A stretch of DNA of 64,000 nt from Limnochordia bacterium (GTDB lineage: Bacteria; Bacillota; Limnochordia; DTU080): assembly GCA_050951545.1 (NCBI GenBank), contig JBMNJG010000006.1, positions 1-64,000 of the forward strand, written 5' to 3'. Below the pieces are notes generated by a model. That model worked only from the letters and a program-made list of their open reading frames with translations, did not search any database and was not told the origin of the DNA. This document shows, in pieces, positions 1,255-33,684 of this stretch (positions are counted from its first letter, which is position 1; every line of letters starts with the position of its first letter). The position numbers were made by a program, and so were the translations under genes.

Positions 1255-4200
1255 ATGAGGTGTAGGGTTCGATTACGATCACCCTTGTCCTTGATGTGCA
1301 GCCTCGTGTTGGTAGCGGGGTCTCTCATGATGCAACTGCCGCTGACGATGGGCGGCGCGGCCGCGGCCCAGACTATCATGCAAGACATCGGCAGTGCAGT
1401 TAACGAAGATTCCTGGAAACAAGTCGGAACCGCTTGGTTTGCTCAGGCTGGTTCACAGCTTACAGGGGCGTTTACGGCGCGCAGTGTGTTCACCCTTGAT
1501 GAGAGCGTTGATACCCACGTTGAGGCGCTCTATCCGGTGGCGCTTAGTACCACCGCTGATTTCGCACCTGATGCACTGCGTGTGGCGCTTCGGCCTGACG
1601 GTTGGTTTGGGTGGAGTCTCTCCATGGAGAGCGACAAGGGACTCGTTCCAACGTCTCGGGGCATGGATGACCCAAGAGTTGCTGAGATAAGTGGGCTGTT
1701 GCTAGGCCCCGGTACCTATGTCGTGCTTCTGAGCTTTGCTCCCCAGACAGGTGCCCTATCAATTTCCATCGATCAAGTGCAAGGCGGTACGCCGAGGTCC
1801 TTGTGTCGAAAGGCTGTGCAAATTGCTGCCACTGACCAGCCATTGTGGCTCGGGGCAGGACTGCATACTCAAGATGGAAGCCGGGCCCCCGAGCTTGTCA
1901 GTTTTGAGACTCTCGGTGCCGAGGGCTGCTACGTACCAGTCAGCACCCAGTTTGTGGTCGGAACACTCTCTGACGAGGGCCTCTTTCTGCCACACGACGC
2001 CGCCAATTTCGATGAGCAGATAGCGGTGCGTCTTTCAGAGGTAGGCGCAAGCGTACCTGGGCAGTTTCAGCTCATGCTCAGCGATATGGACGGTCGGAGC
2101 ATAGGCTCTGTCAATGTAGAAGCCACGGCCCTGACTCGGCTGCCACAGGAGCTACTGCCTCCGGGCGAGGTAGGGCTGAGACTCGATTACACTGATGGGG
2201 GCGAGGTGCTCATGACGGCTAACCGGGTGATCACGATCGGTCGGCCGCGAATGAGTCTGGACGATATCAAGGTTGACTCGACGTCCGAAGAGCTTTCAGG
2301 GCGCTTGTCTATCGTTGCCAAAGCAGGGATTGGCGACATTGATCTCGCAGTGGATCTCTCACTCTACGAAGAGATCTGGAATCCCTCGTTGGACAAGTAC
2401 GACACGGTGCTATACGCAGAACGACGGATTATCGATGCCGCGGTTGGGTTCGACCAGACTGACGAACGCTACGTCGATTTCCGCTTCCCCCTACCCCAGA
2501 AACCCGGTGTGTTTAGACTGCGTTTGCAGGGAAAGGCCACAGCACCCAGATTGCCAGTCTCGCTAGCAGACCACGAGAGATTCTTCACCACATACCTTCC
2601 GGGCACACCGGATTCGGCATTGAAAGTCGCTTGGCTTGCTGAACCAGTCTCTTCGAGTGAGATGCTCGAAGACTTCTGGAAACGCGGCAGGGTGCGTGAA
2701 CTGTTTATCAATGGCTTGCCCGCCCATAGTGATGCTCTGAGACGATGGGCAGTTCATGGCGTGAATGCCGTTACGGGTATCAGCCCAGCGATAGCGCATC
2801 AGTACGGCCTAAAGACGCGCTCGTGGTTTACGATGAACTCCATGAACCAGCAGCTGGGACAAGAGCGGCTCGAGGCGATGGCAGCGGTCAACGAAGACGG
2901 CAGTTTTCGTCGTCCCTACGATCCATTGTTTCCGACGGTTGCTATGAACTGGACGGCCTGCATCGAGAACCCGCTGTGGATTGAACACTCTCGAGAGGTT
3001 TTTCGCAACATGGCTAGGGCGGGATATGATGGCGCCCATATTGACTATGCGGGTCACTATGAACCGTGTTTCTGCAAATACTGTCATACGGCCTGGGAGC
3101 GCTGGGCGGCGAAATTCGGACTAGAGGGAATCACGTTGGCGAGCGCCATGCACGCAACGGATCTGCGCACACAGCTGCTTGTGCGGGAGTTTCGCATCCA
3201 AGGGGTGATGGCCTTTCTCAAGGATTTGCGCGAAGTCGCCCGCGAGATACGGCCTGGCTTTGCCATCGACGGTACCTGGCACCAAGACAGCAGTTCCACC
3301 TATCAGTGGGCTTACGGAGACCACTTCGATCTGATGTGTATCGAGGGTACTACCTGGGGTCCCTTTCCGCCTGAAGGGACGCAGGTACTATGGATGAAGC
3401 TGGCTCACGCCCTGAGCGAACGGCCCGATCGGCGCCCTCCAGCCATGTCTGTGACGTACCACCTGCTTCACGACAAAGATGGACACATGTTTCATGGACG
3501 CATGGCAGCCGATCGCCTGCGAATAGCTCTTGCTGAGATAATCAGTGAAGGTGGCGTTTCCTGGAAAGGACTTGGCGGCCCTCAGACTGGTAGCTTGCTA
3601 CGTGAGCATCAGGACATCGTACGTGCGTATTACCGGCTCGCCCGAGATATAGAGCCTTTGCTCGTGGATGCTGAAGACGTGGCCGCCATTGGCATCGTCT
3701 TCTCACCGCGCTCATACCTGCTTACAAATGCAATGCGTACACAGCTTTACGCTATCGGACAGGCCCTCATGCAGGCCCACGTCCCGTTTCGCGTGATATC
3801 AGATGTAGGGCTAGAGACAGAAGCCCTAAGCGATCTGTCCGGTGTGGTACTGCTCAGCGCCAGGGCCCTAAGTGATGACGCGTGCACGGCGCTTCAGCAG
3901 TATATAGAAAACGGCGGCCAGGCGCTAGTCATCGGCGGCGACGCGGCGACGCTTACCGAGGACTGGCAGACACGCAAATCGCGACCAGCGTTCGCTGTGC
4001 CCCCCAGTACCCAAGGGACTCTCATTAGCAGACGGATGGGTAAAGGGGAATGCCACTATTGGACGGAGGAGACCTTTTCGGCGAAGGCATTGGGAGCAGT
4101 ACAGAGCGTAGCTCTAGACCACGACCGGCCGACTAAGCTGGCAGTGGAGGGCTGGTCAAGAGCTGAAGACGTAGTAGGTCAGCCGGACGGCAACTACTCG

Positions 4201-26481: not shown

Positions 26482-26711
26482 GGTGCTAACACCTCGCCTC
26501 TCCTTGAGTTGAGTACATCATGGTCATTTTTTCGCATTGCCAGTGGCTAGTCCTCTTTTGTGGCAATATAAGTGAACGCCTTCTCGTGTTACAGTGGTGG
26601 GATCATTTGCTTACTTTGAGCAAGGCACTGATACCGTCTTCTACGTCAACGGGGCCACGGAGAAAACTGCGGTAATCTCCCTGCGTTCGCTTGGGTTGGT
26701 GGAAAGAACCT

Positions 26712-28498
26712 AGCGATGCGGTCTTGGCGGAGCCCTTTTTGCTAATTCTGATCGCCGTGAGGGCTTATTTCGCTGCCTAAGAGCACGCTTTCCCGCTCTG
26801 GTGGCCCCTTTGGGGCTACTGGGCAGTACATAACCGGACGCCATTGATCGCCTTTTCCCGCTCAGGGATTGGATCAGCTGTCCGACGCGCGATCATGGCA
26901 GGCTCGCCGTGATCCCTTTGCGGACAGGCCCTTCGGTGTTACCCCGGTCGGTACATTTGGAGGAGAATGGGCGGATGCATGGACACGCTCGCGAGACAGG
27001 GCCGGTAGTCGAACAGATGCACCCGGATTGGTACGTGAGTCGGGGCCAAGAATCCGACCGCCATGGCAAAAGAGCCGCCTCATTAGCCCCCGGGGCCAAT
27101 GTACGTGGTAAAAGTGCAGCGTTGCGGCCTTCGCGGTGCCCTTTTTGCTCATTTTGACCGCCCGAAGGGCTCTTTTCCCCGCAAAGAGCACGCTTTCCCG
27201 CCTTGGTGGCCCCTTTGGGGCTACTGGGCAGTACATAACCCGACGGTGGTGATACCTTTTTCCCACTCAGTCGATGGGGTCAGCTCCCCAGTGCGCGATC
27301 ACAGCGGGCTCGCTCGGATCCCTCTGCGGACCAATCCTTCGGTGTTGCCCCAGTCGGTACATTTGGAGGAGAATGGGCGGATTCATGGACACGCTCGCGA
27401 AACAGGGCCGGTAGTCGAACAGATGCACCCGGATTGGTACGTGAGTCGGGGCCAAGAATCCGACGGCGATGGCGGAAGAGTCGCCTCATTAACCCCCGGG
27501 CCCAATGTACGTGGTAAAAGTGCAGCGATGCGGCCTTCGCGGAGCCCTTTTTGCTCATTTTGACCGCCCGAAGGGCTCATTTCCCCGCCCAAAGAGCGCG
27601 CTTTCCCGCCTTGGTGGCCCTTCTGGAGCTACTGGGCAGTACATAACCGAACAGTGTCGATAGCCTTTTCCCACTCAGCCGATGGGGTCAGCTCCCCAGT
27701 GCGCGATCACAGCGGGCTCGCGCGGATCCCTCTGCGAACCGACCCTTCAGTGCTAACCCGGTCGGTGCATTTGGAAGAGAATGGACGGATGCATGGACGC
27801 GCTCGCGAGACTCGCTCGGTAGTCGGACAGATGCACCCGGATTGGTACGTGAGTCGGGGCCAAGAATCCGACCGTGATAGCAAAGGAGCCACCTCATTAA
27901 CCCCCGGGCCCAATGTACGTGGTAAAAGTGCAGCGATGCGGCCTTCGCGAAGCCCTTTTTGCTCATTTTGACCGCCCGAAGGGCTCATTTCCCCCCAAAA
28001 GAGCGCACCTTCCCGCCTTGGTGGCCCTTCTGGAGCTACTGGGCAGTACATAACCGAACAGTGTCGATCGCCTTTTCCCACTCAGCCGATGGGGTCAGCT
28101 CCCCAGTGCGCGATCACAGCGGGCTCGCGCGGATCCCTCTGCGAACCGACCCTTCAGTGCTAACCCGGTCGGTGCATTTGGAAGAGAATGGACGGATGCA
28201 TGGACGCGCTCGCGAGACTGGCTCGGTAGTCGGACAGATGCACCCGGATTGGTACGTGAGTCGGGGCCAAGAATCCGACCGTGATAGCAAAGGAGCCACC
28301 TCATTAACCCCCGGGCCCAATGTACGTGGTAAAAGTGCAGCGATGCGGCCTTCGCGAAGCCCTTTTTGCTCATTTTGACCGCCCGAAGGGCTCATTTCCC
28401 CCCAAAAGAGCGCACCTTCCCGCCTTGGTGGCCCTTCTGGAGCTACTGGGCAGTACATAACCGAACAGTGTCGATCGTCTTTTCCCACTCAGCCGATG
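26712..28498. repeat. Tandem array of ~4.4 copies of a 405-408-bp unit (degenerate extension to ~26640)
   Basis: Marker CTACTGGGCAGTACATAACC at 26816, 27221, 27629, 28036 and 28443 (periods 405, 408, 407, 407). Marker AGCG(A/T)TGCGG at 26712, 27118, 27524, 27932 and 28339. Confidence 0.97.
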
Positions 28499-28629
28499 AT
28501 CCGAGGGGGAAATGCTGTCGACTCCCGGTGGCCACCGGGTCTTAGCTGGCAATGCGCGCGCAGTCAGCGAAGAACTATTGTCTGTGGAAGGATTCTGTCC
28601 TCACGTACCGAACATCGCATCGAGACAAT

Positions 28630-28643
28630 CGAACACACGGTCG
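28630..28643 (+). promoter_or_regulatory. Candidate Gram-positive LexA (Cheo/SOS) box
   Basis: CGAAC-ACAC-GGTCG versus consensus CGAAC-RNRY-GTTCG (one mismatch), just before the RBS of the HTH-nuclease gene. A weaker CGAAC-ATCG-CATCG lies at 28609-28622. Confidence 0.4.
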
Positions 28644-28661
28644 TTGTGTGAGGTGAGGCCT

Positions 28662-29723
28662 TTGTACTCTCTCTATGTAGATGAGGTGAACGTGCCGCTC
28701 TCACTGCTACTGACTCGCGAGCTAAAAGCCAGCGAGAAGATCGTTTGGATGGCCTTAACGATGGATGATCAGCTGGAGGAGAGTTTCCTTTTCTCGCCCA
28801 GCCGCCTGGGGCGGCGCACGGGTATGTCCCGGCCTACCGTTCGCAGGGCGACAGCCAAGTTAACCACCGAGGGCTGGTTTGCTCCACCGGCTAGGCGGGG
28901 ACCTAGCCAGACCGCGGCACAGAAGCCATCCCCGGATAGGGTCTCCGTACCTGTGGAGCTAGTCATGGCTACTGAAATCCATGCACAGGCCAAAGTGGTT
29001 TATGCCCTACTGCTGTCCAAACCTACGGACCCACCTCGCAAAAGGCAGTTCACGTACGCTGAGTTAGCCGGCCGGATGAGTCTGAGCCCCCAAACCATCA
29101 AACACGCGGCTCGTCAGTTGGCCAAGCATGGTTGGCTGGAGATGGAGCAGGCGCACAAGCGGGCACCGATTCGCTTCACTCTCCACAACCCGGTTGATAA
29201 GCGAAATGTAAAAGAAATACTAGACGTGCAGGATGAGCTCCACCGCGCTACGCACCTCGGAGAGGCTCTCATGCAGGCTATCTTCTTGGCGCTTGTCGAT
29301 TGCCTTGACTTCGACGACGGAATGCGCCCAGGTTTCATGAGGAACCCAGCAACTGGCAAGCGTCTGGAGGTCGATCTCTTCTATTACTTGCACAATACGG
29401 CCATGGAGTTCAATGGGGCGCAACACTACCGCGTCACGGAGCGGAATTCGGCTGAGCAGGTCCATAAGCAGCAATGCCGTGACCAGACCAAACAGCAGAT
29501 CTGCGCTAAGAAGAAGATCAAGCTGATCGTGATTCAGGCTCACGAGCTGTCCTGCAAGATCATCAAGCGCAAGATTCGCAGGCGGCTGCCATTCCGGCGC
29601 GGTCAGGACTTCAACCGGAGGCTCATCAACTATCTCGAGTGTAGATGCGGTGAGTACCAGCAAAGAATAGATGAGCGTGGCTGGGGAACCGCCAGTGAAT
29701 CTGAGAGAAAGCAAGACGAGTAG
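28662..29723 (+). CDS. Tandem winged-HTH protein with C-terminal Vsr/DUF559-like (PD-(D/E)XK-fold) endonuclease domain
   Basis: TTG 28662 after GAGGTG. Two repeats VnVPlsLl...K.Vw.aL...(T/S)..(E/R)L..R.g(M/L)S..T(V/I)......L...GW. C-terminal GEALMQ...RPGFMRNPATGKRLEVDLFY...AMEFNGAQHY...QQCRDQTKQQICAKKKIKLIVI. Confidence 0.75.
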   Translation: MYSLYVDEVNVPLSLLLTRELKASEKIVWMALTMDDQLEESFLFSPSRLGRRTGMSRPTVRRATAKLTTEGWFAPPARRGPSQTAAQKPSPDRVSVPVELVMATEIHAQAKVVYALLLSKPTDPPRKRQFTYAELAGRMSLSPQTIKHAARQLAKHGWLEMEQAHKRAPIRFTLHNPVDKRNVKEILDVQDELHRATHLGEALMQAIFLALVDCLDFDDGMRPGFMRNPATGKRLEVDLFYYLHNTAMEFNGAQHYRVTERNSAEQVHKQQCRDQTKQQICAKKKIKLIVIQAHELSCKIIKRKIRRRLPFRRGQDFNRRLINYLECRCGEYQQRIDERGWGTASESERKQDE

Positions 29724-29772
29724 TCACCCTGGGTTACCTTGCCCGTTTCGTCAGGGCTCACATCAGCCGTGC

Positions 29773-29814
29773 AGCCCAACTCTACCACGGGCAACGCCTG
29801 GTCCTGAAGGTACC
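29773..29814 (+). pseudogene. Tiny remnant of a paralogue of SBP 22809..24110
   Basis: AGCCCAACTCTACCACGGGCAACGCCT matches 23704-23730 at 26 of 27 positions. Confidence 0.65.
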
Positions 29815-31579: not shown

Positions 31580-33684
31580 CTAGCGTGAGTTTCCTACTTA
31601 CGGCGCCGAATCATGCTTAGATGGCAGGACATAGGTGGGTCTAGGGCTCGTTGGTTGTTGTGGATAAACTGTCTAGCTGGTCTTAAGCTCCGTCAGGGGG
31701 TGACAGGGTCTTCGTATAAGCACGGAATGATCTGTATTACCCCAAGAACCCAGTCGTTTTGGCTTCGCGGAAGATCCGCGTTTTTCCCACTACTGGGCCG
31801 TAAAAACTGTTTGGTCGCCAGGAGGATTTGGCGTTTTGACTGCGAATGACGTATTACCCTTGTTTGAGGTGGTGCGTCGATGGCTTCGATCATCAAGAAA
31901 CGCAAAGGCCAACCAAGTCTATTACTACGCTGCCCAGTGTCAGCGCGTAAATGGCAAGCCGCGCATTGTATGGCAGAAGTACTTGGGCAAGCTGGAAGAT
32001 ATCGTGGCCAAAATGTCCGACCACGACGTGCCCAAGCCCTATGCCGCTCATGTGTTTCAGTTCGGTGCTGTAGCGGCCCTCTATCACATAGCACAGCGTC
32101 TTCAGCTTGTGGATAAGATTGATCGGCATGCGCCAAAACGAGCGCAAGGAGGCACAGTAGGCGAGTATATGCTGGTGGCCGCCATTAACCGTGCCGCCGA
32201 TCCCAAAAGTAAGCGCCAAATCGGCGAATGGTTTGAGGGTACCGCTTTGCGCCGTTTTCTCCCCCACATGAACGCAAAAACGTTGGCCAGTCAACGTTTT
32301 TGGGACCACATGGGTTACCTGGACCAGAAGAAAATCCAAGCCATCGAGAAAGACCTGACGGAACACATGGTCAAGGTATTCGATCTCGACCTGCAGGCTG
32401 TCGTGTACGATGCCACCAATTTCGTGAGTTACATCGATACAGGTTCTGAATCCGAATTGGCACAGCGTGGCAACAGCAAGGCTAAGCGGCACGATCTGAA
32501 GCAGATAAGTCTTGCACTTATGGTTACTATGGATTACCACATCCCCCTCTTCCACGACGTGTATCCCGGCAACAGACCAGACGCAGTTCAGTTCGCCTCC
32601 GTCACCGAACAGCTTGTGGAGCGCTACAAGCTACTCGCCAAACACTGCGAGCACATCACCATCGTCTGGGATAAGGGCAACAACTCCAAGAGCAACCAAC
32701 AGGCCTTTGATGCGCAAGCTTCCTACCACGTTGTCGGCTCTTTGTCGCCCAGTCAGCACCTGGATCTACTGGCACAGGCATCCGTGAGTTTTGGGCCCAT
32801 GAAAGGCGAATACATTGGCCACAAAGCCTTTCGAACTCGCCGGCTCGTGATGGGCAAAGAGCGCACCGTAGTGGTGGTTTTCAACCCGGCACGTTCGTTG
32901 GGGCAGCAGCAAGGATTATTGACAAAAACTGAAAAAGGCCGAGAAGGCATTGCGAGAGCTATGCAAGAAGCTCGAGCGACGCCGCGTCGGGGAAGTTAAG
33001 AGTGGCCGAGCCCCCACCTACGAAAGCATTGAAAAACAAGTTAGTGACATTCTCAAAGACCCGGAGGTTCGAGCTGTCATTCAAACCAAGCTCACCGGCG
33101 GCGATATTGTGCCTGAGCTGGTCTTTGAGATCGACCAGCAGTCCATCAATGCCATGGTTGAGCAGCGCTTTGGCAAACTGATTCTCTTCAGCGACAACCA
33201 GGACTGGACCAACGAAGAGATTCTTGCTGCCTATCGCGGACAGTTTCATATCGAAGACGCTTTCAAGCAGATGAAGGATCCGCATTTCGTCGGCTGGAGC
33301 CCCATGTTCCACTGGACAGATTCGATGATCCGCGTGCATGCATTTTACTGCGTAATCGCCCTGACTCTTAGCTCGCTACTATGGCGAGAGGTCTGCCACC
33401 AATTCACGGCGGCCAACAAAGCAGAACAGGCACCCAAGAGCATTCCCGCCTTGCTTGAGAGCCTTGAGGGCATCGCCGAGGTGGCGCACATCTACCCGCC
33501 ACAAATGAACATCCAGGATCACCTCACGCTGTCGCAGATGAATCAGCAGCAAAAGACGCTTTTCGCCACCCTAGGCTTGGAGCGCTTTGCCCCGAGGTGT
33601 GGTAATACACCGCCATAGCCGAAAAGGCCCATAACTAAGCAGTTTCCGGGCCCTTGCGATTCATAACTAGGAAACTCACGCTAG
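31580..33684 (+). mobile_element. IS1634-family insertion sequence, full length
   Basis: Terminal inverted repeats CTAGCGTGAGTTTCCTA (from 31580) and TAGGAAACTCACGCTAG (to 33684) enclose the transposase. Confidence 0.88.
31880..33618 (+). pseudogene. IS1634-family DDE transposase with two +1 frameshifts (~31905 and ~32925)
   Basis: MASIIKKRK/NQVYYY...RVNGKPRIVWQKYLG N-terminus; DDE motifs VVYDATN, IVWDKGN, HIEDAFKQMK; FHWTDSMIRVHAFYCVIAL. Confidence 0.85.

Follow-up and report, generated by a model that had tools for sequence, protein, structure and literature searches.

The window analysed here is a stretch of 64,000 nucleotides from a Limnochordia bacterium (assembly GCA_050951545.1, contig JBMNJG010000006.1, positions 1 to 64,000 of the forward strand). 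Between positions 26651 and 29777 it carries a tandem array of units of about 407 bp, followed by a single gene whose product combines two winged helix-turn-helix (wHTH) domains with a nuclease domain of Vsr/EDxHD type. Array and gene recur together elsewhere in the genome, and it is this repeated element, its ends, its array and its one protein that are dealt with below.

Array and gene at the window locus

The features of the locus are as follows.

26651-26672, + strand: left terminal inverted repeat, GGGGCCACGGAGAAAACTGCGG, with two mismatches to the family consensus GGGGCCACGCAAAAAACTGCGG
26673-26698, + strand: leader between left end and array, kept among copies in a comparison of upstream junctions
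26699-28498, + strand: tandem array of four full units of ~407 bp and a partial unit (28326-28498) that corresponds to unit positions 1-173
28499-28661, + strand: 5' region of the gene, with a ribosome-binding site GAGGTGAGG at 28650-28658
28630-28643, + strand: LexA-type box CGAACACACGGTCG, found by genome scan, one mismatch from CGAAC-N4-GTTCG and 18 nt before the start codon
28662-29723, + strand: gene for a protein of 353 amino acids (Pfam, AlphaFold (AF2) model, fold matches, PHROGs, 13 intact copies)
~28683-28880, + strand: first wHTH domain (Pfam)
~28938-29186, + strand: second wHTH domain (Pfam)
~29247-29594, + strand: Vsr/EDxHD-like nuclease domain (fold matches, PHROGs)
29724-29777, + strand: conserved tail after the stop codon, at whose end homology to other copies ceases (tail alignment, coverage profile)

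Tandem Repeats Finder (TRF) describes positions 26712-28498 as a single array of period 407, with 4.4 copies in the assembly, 91% matches and a score of 2737. A repeat search places the unit starts at 26699, 27104, 27512, 27919 and 28326, which gives spacings of 405, 408, 407 and 407, and the last unit ends 163 nt before the TTG start codon at 28662. An earlier account of this DNA, made from the letters alone and called here the sequence-only reading, had described about 4.4 copies of a 405-408-bp unit some 160 bp before a nuclease gene, and both methods confirm it. Its statement that the period is mostly not a multiple of three is only half right, since two of the four spacings (405 and 408) are divisible by three and both spacings of 407 are not. 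It was also correct in finding no unique spacers, all of the units being homologous. An array of clustered regularly interspaced short palindromic repeats (CRISPR) was rejected because whole 407-bp units repeat without such spacers and no cas family occurs in the neighbours scanned.

An alternative open reading frame (ORF) of 403 amino acids opens at an ATG at 28512, upstream of TTG 28662, and is thus longer than the gene. The frame of its first 50 codons is not kept in other copies, where tblastn alignments begin at residue 24 or shift frame, and homologues begin at the MYS/LYS position that corresponds to the TTG start.

Pfam recognizes both of the wHTH domains that had been claimed for the gene product and no family in its C-terminal third. 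The AF2 model of the 353-residue protein has a mean predicted local distance difference test score of 77. In this model residues 54-225 align over 162 residues with the Pi initiator on iteron DNA (2nra), at a Z score of 8.4, a level at which many single winged helices score alike and wHTH matches are common. The best matches of the nuclease domain within the whole model are Vsr (1cw0, Z 8.0) and the homing endonuclease I-Bth0305I (3r3p, Z 7.9). When the domain is folded alone the same two rank first and second of 48,161 chains (3r3p, Z 6.6 over 80 residues with a root-mean-square deviation of 3.2; 1cw0, Z 6.2). They are followed by other restriction-fold nucleases; TnsA is matched at Z 4.5 (1t0f) and Z 3.8 (9bw1), again with the domain alone. 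Foldseek likewise puts I-Bth0305I and Vsr at the top, with weak E-values of 0.067 and 0.13.

Sequence families from phages point the same way. The C-terminal domain matches PHROGs families whose annotations read homing endonuclease, intron-encoded nuclease or 'HNH endonuclease' (E 1e-6 to 1e-11, with the homing endonucleases at 1e-9 to 1e-11), and the winged helices match replication-initiator and DnaD-like families (E 1e-7 to 1e-6, with the initiators at 1e-7). Agreement of two fold-comparison programs with the homing-endonuclease families upholds the Vsr-like nuclease of the sequence-only reading. Across 68 relatives D238, E249, G252, H255, D274 and K277 are invariant. The D...N-G-x-x-H...D pattern of the protein fits, by order and spacing only, the catalytic residues D196, N208, H213 and D222 of I-Bth0305I (PMC3239194).

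A multicopy element with defined ends

The genome to which the window belongs comprises 3.64 Mb in 16 contigs (labelled C1-C16) and is 93.9% complete. BLAST with the 407-bp unit returns 85 pieces at 25 loci; in 20 of these loci a piece ends at unit position 173, and in full arrays the conserved leader gives way to the unit at about its position 13. The flanks of 19 arrays are unique and their sets of units differ, and about 15 arrays adjoin a gene copy at least 95% identical to that of the window, or remains of one. Seen from the gene, tblastn at this level of amino acid identity finds 13 intact and 2 broken copies, each directly after an array, besides fragments. A further 13 gene copies form three paralogue groups with about 54%, 47% and 45% amino acid identity. 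Array and gene are thus coupled physically as well as evolutionarily, as the sequence-only reading had it; the unit is rarely found away from the gene, and its presence at 25 loci together with this co-occurrence supports the selfish character that had been proposed. Differences among the 13 intact copies amount to 3.3% at third codon positions and 1.0% at the first two, from which it follows that the protein is under purifying selection.

The window copy is about 3.1 kb long (about 26651-29777), a repeated sequence bounded by unique flanks. Repeat coverage climbs from 1 to 15 at ~26650, and the profile is sharp at both ends. Complete copies measure 2.5-4 kb and show a constant order: left inverted repeat, leader, 407-bp units (one to five or more, the final one always ending at unit position 173), LexA-type operator, gene, tail and right inverted repeat, with optional short modules in the tail before the right repeat. 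The window copy extends only ~53 nt beyond the stop codon and is without right subterminal modules, right inverted repeat and target duplication; it is therefore a truncated copy with an intact gene. Of the 'system' originally proposed for this locus the coupling of array and gene stands, and its single-copy nature does not, the locus being a right-truncated copy of a multicopy element.

It is hardly credible that the array, or its copy number, arises from a mis-assembled repeat. Short-read contigs do break inside the array, and the copy number given for the window is that of the assembly. Against this, the units in the window differ by 2-16% in a fixed order, units 3 and 4 being 98% identical and unit 1 the most diverged, and the 19 arrays have their own flanks and sets of units. 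An independent landfill metagenome (X5) gives depths of ~20-24 over the flanks, 264-299 over the gene and 400-1170 over the array. These 13-15-fold and 20-50-fold excesses over the flanks for gene and unit are those expected if each genome holds ~13-15 copies of the gene and units in far greater number, which argues against an artefact. In the same metagenome one flank contig stops at 26659 and another starts at 29773; a contig that joins 26658 to 27050 has one side of just 29 nt.

Complete copies terminate in ...ATTTCNCGTGTGCACCC. A scan for the left-end motif with up to four mismatches yields 14 matches, and all 14 lie at ends of elements of the 407-bp family, so that no other gene shares these ends. 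When the two ends of each of the six complete copies are anchored at their termini and compared without gaps, 16-19 of 30 positions agree as inverted repeats, whereas random 30-mers average 7.6 matches and reach at least 17 in 0.03% of cases. Only the anchored ungapped comparison is significant; gapped local alignment of left with right end does not rise above shuffles. The 9-nt flanks of the complete copies are identical (9/9) in three and match at 8/9 in one. These target duplications, CACGCCCGA, ACCATACGG, AGCTGCTTG and GAGTAAAAT, differ in sequence and lie at unrelated sites. Two short derivatives without the gene also occur, their left and right ends being of the same kind (C7 457714-458148, 435 bp; C16 2098-2330, 233 bp), and each lies 20 nt beyond a full element, on its right-end side. 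On C7 one 9-bp duplication brackets the composite of full element and 435-bp derivative.

The distribution of copies suggests that insertion upstream of tRNA genes is favoured. Counting all groups, 6 of 29 copies have a tRNA gene at a distance of 59-161 bp (copies at C2 124489, C3 130782, C12 190890, C16 2422, C16 77639 and C5 217844), and only ~1.1% of the genome is so close to one. Four of the six belong to the 407-bp family; they are 59-90 bp away and face the 5' side of the tRNA.

An insertion sequence (IS) of 1.7 kb with ends CAGGACTTCCGCAAG and a DDE_Tnp_1 transposase is present in three copies (for example C7 ~658400-660050 and C11 ~1510-3230). Two of the three sit 8-20 nt outside the end of an element of the 407-bp family, and the IS ends are unrelated to those of the element. 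This proximity may be due to chance or to a common target preference.

The protein family extends well beyond this genome. An initial homology search gave 10 clusters, and an exhaustive profile search gives 353 representative clusters at E <= 1e-30. NCBI and JGI name the relatives only 'helix-turn-helix domain-containing protein' or 'hypothetical protein'. They are multicopy in metagenome-assembled genomes (MAGs) labelled Limnochordia, Symbiobacteriaceae, Thermaerobacter and other Bacillota. In two same-genus genomes, both fragmented, a copy of the gene was not found. A phage collection gives eight short C-terminal matches, all to hypothetical proteins.

For five loci with relatives of the gene (L095, L098, L119, L129 and L141), the MAG bears the label Mycobacterium leprae, Actinomycetales or Bacteroidota. 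The contigs probably belong to Bacillota and were mis-binned, so that the labels would not name the true hosts.

The repeated units and the LexA-type operator

Each array of the 407-bp family has the layout (A-B)n-A, where A stands for unit positions 1-173. Such a layout would result from unequal exchange between flanking A copies. Units are 85.6% identical between arrays and 89.1% within arrays, and the genes 98.2%. For 18 of 45 units, such as units 3 and 4 of the window, the nearest relative lies in the same array, and some arrays are positional orthologues of each other. Arrays are thus inherited with the element and also amplified locally.

In the same genome TRF finds other periods beside paralogues: all seven copies of one paralogue group have arrays of 94 or 104 bp, and two of the four copies of another have arrays of 255-282 bp. 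These arrays lie after the gene, yet in the same relative orientation to it as in the 407-bp family. Relatives in this and other genomes carry arrays of unrelated sequence with units of 40-354 bp. Among 79 loci of other genomes, which are not independent of each other, TRF counts 22 arrays with a period of at least 40 in the 207 kb that lie no more than 1.5 kb from the gene, against 4 in the 289 kb beyond, a 7.7-fold enrichment near the gene (p about 1e-5). Several paralogues in one Limnochordia MAG have a single copy of a module upstream, and at one paralogue this module is tandemly amplified, which indicates that amplification of non-coding modules is recurrent and lineage-specific. As a non-coding sub-terminal module that has been amplified, the array moves together with the element and expands locally as well.

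There is only a slim chance that the array is instead the functional core of the element, its units giving rise to structured RNAs or small proteins that serve the nuclease as guide, scaffold or antitoxin. Some observations on RNA structure would suit this idea. The RNAalifold energy of 51 units is somewhat below that of column-shuffled controls on both strands (plus, -45.4 against -31.7 +/- 5.1; minus, -59.5 against -39.6 +/- 5.8). Each unit starts with a hairpin and a T-run, and this stretch, the first 43 nt of the 407-bp unit, has been kept by the 54% group in its 262-bp unit (score 36; shuffles, 18.9 +/- 1.9). Covariation speaks otherwise, pairs of double-sided changes in the 51 units numbering 4 and 11 against 6.4 and 8.5 in column shuffles, and Rfam over 25-31 kb with E up to 1 returns only a chance-level sX12 match outside the array. 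RNA contigs from two metatranscriptomes cover the gene and not the array, although such contigs drop repeats, which makes the missing coverage weak evidence. The structured RNA suggested by the sequence-only reading is therefore not borne out. An antisense ORF in the unit ranges from 11 to 139 amino acids across the 51 units, so the unit is not coding, and a small protein encoded there was rejected on this ground. The sharing of no sequence among the arrays of relatives, from 40 to 407 bp, also tells against a core function. In a promoter scan of the units no sigma-70 site recurred. Around the elements, motifs such as ACATAACC show an enrichment of ~19-fold, a count that is not independent of the repeats themselves.

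The kinship of the winged helices with replication initiators raises another explanation, to which we give an equally small probability. The element would be the remnant of a replicon or partition-like module, in which the wHTH region is an initiator of the Rep/DnaD type, the repeats are giant iterons and a circle integrates into the chromosome. The two-domain alignment to Pi on iteron DNA and the PHROGs matches to initiators and DnaD-like proteins are what this would lead one to expect, and the swapped order of gene and array between paralogue groups, with orientation kept, looks like circular permutation. The weight of the structural argument is lessened by how common such wHTH matches are. 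Moreover, the family has zero matches in a collection of 72,556 plasmids, the units are 20 times the length of an iteron, and genes for a helicase, a primase or partition are absent from the element. Integration of a replicon is not marked by target duplications or inverted repeats. The resemblance to iteron-binding initiators (Pi of R6K, 2NRA; RepA/DnaD-type) lies in the fold only: both have a tandem winged-helix fold beside directly repeated DNA, but here the repeats are 40-407 bp and not ~20 bp, a nuclease domain is attached, and the setting is chromosomal and multicopy, with no plasmid relative.

The sequence CGAAC-N4-GTTCG is what we take to be the consensus of the LexA (SOS) operator. 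A box with at most one mismatch to it lies just before the start codon in 27 of the 28 gene copies (15/15, 6/7, 4/4 and 2/2 by group), and the four groups that conserve it share only 45-54% amino acid identity. The region upstream of lexA in the same genome has one perfect CGAAC-N4-GTTCG box and two with one mismatch. In ten copies an additional LexA-type box lies next to the right end. From these sites it appears that the gene may be under LexA control and induced by DNA damage.

The candidate mobility enzyme and known systems

We interpret the segment 26651-29777 as a right-truncated copy of a multicopy, SOS-controlled transposon-like element, whose sole protein is the tandem-wHTH Vsr/EDxHD nuclease and whose array is an amplified sub-terminal module. 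This is in our judgement probable, though not strongly so. The product of the nuclease gene is the only candidate mobility protein of the element, and it would be its mobility enzyme, with the winged helices binding both the units and the ends. Pfam and NCBIfam find only HTH families in it, and no DDE/RNase H, HUH, serine or tyrosine recombinase domain.

The following mechanism is proposed. LexA would hold the gene off, and DNA damage would switch it on. The winged helices would bind repeated sites in the ends and units, the nuclease would cut the element ends and/or the target, and a copy of the element, or the element itself, would reach a new site, often one just upstream of a tRNA gene. 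Local growth of the array may come about through recombination between the A-B-A repeats, that is, by exchange between A copies, or as a by-product of repeated nicking.

A number of points weigh against this interpretation. We know of no nuclease of Vsr/EDxHD fold that transposes DNA alone, and inverted repeats flanked by 9-bp duplications are the usual mark of DDE transposases. Sequence and profile searches of the PDB gave wHTH matches only, the nuclease domain matching no solved structure; the fold scores are middling (Z 6-8); and the Pfam family DUF2726 is matched only weakly, in 20 of the 68 relatives, which otherwise match HTH families. As to the ends, the 9-nt flanks of two of the six complete copies match at just 4/9 and 2/9, with no clear duplication. 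Target duplications could not be defined in the 47% and 54% paralogue groups. Judged by eye, the ends of the paralogue groups differ, and the 47% group apparently has at its borders copies of a 42-nt motif in direct instead of inverted orientation. An empty site was sought in four metagenome or metatranscriptome runs (X1, X5, X15 and X16), and no contig bridges the element; the same-genus genomes offer a single flank, which lies where a contig stops, and no polymorphic insertion came to light. With the genome 94% complete, a trans-acting transposase could be missing from it. Local alignment of left or right end with the unit is not above shuffles, which leaves the notion that the units are binding sites like the ends without direct support. 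Most homologues stand without repeats: TRF detects no array in 59 of the 79 loci of other genomes and an array anywhere in 20. The density of arrays is nonetheless higher near the gene, as given above. Lastly, I-Bth0305I leaves only a 2-nt overhang (PMC3239194).

The main rival is a non-autonomous element, on which a conventional transposase would act in trans from a gene elsewhere in the genome or missing from the assembly. This transposase would recognize the inverted repeats and make the 9-bp duplications, and the nuclease would be cargo, either a selfish gene of homing or addiction type or a regulator. We regard this as unlikely, though less so than the other alternatives. It draws on the DDE-like signature of the ends and duplications, on the incomplete assembly and on the gene-less derivatives of C7 and C16, which share the ends of full elements. 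The genome also contains 14 matches to DDE_Tnp_1 and fragments of IS256 type, and no ISL3 transposase. The left-end scan points away from it, for all 14 matches belong to the 407-bp family and no other gene lies between such ends, while the ends of the IS that adjoins two copies are unrelated. Four diverged groups each retain the same single gene, intact and under purifying selection, which would be unexpected of cargo, and the relatives are multicopy in several other genomes.

Returning to the nuclease as the putative mobility enzyme, its domain belongs with the EDxHD/Vsr-like homing endonucleases. I-Bth0305I (3R3P) supplies the best fold match for the catalytic domain, the sequence matches phage families that carry annotations as homing or intron-encoded nucleases, and both kinds of protein are encoded by selfish genes and place a DNA-binding region at the N-terminus and the nuclease at the C-terminus. 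In contrast, the DNA-binding part of these enzymes consists of NUMOD motifs and here of two winged helices. Nor does the present gene lie in an intron or intein or beside one conserved target gene; it occupies many unrelated chromosomal sites, within an element that has inverted repeats, 9-bp duplications, tandem arrays and a LexA-type operator. Homing into one cognate allele was rejected because the copies are at unrelated sites with different 9-bp duplications. The element thus fails the one-cognate-target behaviour of its closest enzymatic relatives.

In its organization the element is closer to an insertion sequence: it is multicopy, has imperfect inverted repeats, 9-bp duplications and gene-less derivatives, and encodes one gene. 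Terminal inverted repeats with 8-9-bp target duplications characterize the IS4 and IS256 families. The differences are that its protein is without a known transposase class and that it carries long sub-terminal arrays of 94-407 bp. TnsA of Tn7 is also comparable, as a PD-(D/E)xK-type nuclease combined with a winged helix in a transposon, with the weak fold matches to 1t0f and 9bw1 given above; here, however, the domain order is reversed and the element has no partner gene. TnsA cuts the transposon ends and acts only with the DDE transposase TnsB. A role in defence, the other possibility raised by the sequence-only reading, is not supported, PADLOC giving only three weak matches at the level of the HTH (E 7e-4 to 7e-3).

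All well-studied bacterial transposons use, to our knowledge, DDE, HUH, serine or tyrosine enzymes. Nucleases of the restriction-endonuclease/Vsr fold are known as helpers, such as TnsA, or as homing enzymes with a single target. A full-text literature search found no paper describing an element of the present kind. We put forward, tentatively and as less probable than the interpretation of the locus itself, that it belongs to a new class of DNA transposon among prokaryotes. A Vsr/EDxHD nuclease joined to a replication-initiator-like tandem wHTH would act as its transposase, induced by the SOS response and generating 9-bp duplications, often upstream of tRNA genes, and its self-nicking would produce arrays that act as multi-site protein platforms. 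If this is true, the element either adds a new mobility chemistry or shows a homing endonuclease gene turned transposon. The recurrent long arrays beside family members would offer a tractable case of the birth of satellite-like DNA in bacteria, and the conserved LexA-type operator would tie the spread of the element to DNA damage. A sequence-specific binder with a nicking or cutting domain, from thermophilic Bacillota, might also interest tool builders.

The surroundings of the window copy bear no relation to it. A Pfam scan of five neighbouring ORFs finds solute-binding proteins and an FMN reductase, and no integrase, transposase or cas gene, in agreement with the earlier description of the module as foreign to sugar-uptake genes. 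Further along, at 31836-32999 (+ strand), an ORF of 387 amino acids has no Pfam family at E up to 0.01.

Other repeats are present in the genome. Tandem arrays with a period of 61-67 that resemble CRISPR occur on contigs C6 (153894-159109), C16 (153015-157743) and C9 (15169-16945), and right beside the end of one of them lies a fragment of the element (C6 159497-159833), consisting of unit positions 1-173 and a piece of the gene. Two long tandem repeats, C4 141547-147253 (period 1480, 3.9 copies, 95%) and C7 358071-361578 (period 1218, 2.9 copies, 81%), may be repetitive protein genes.

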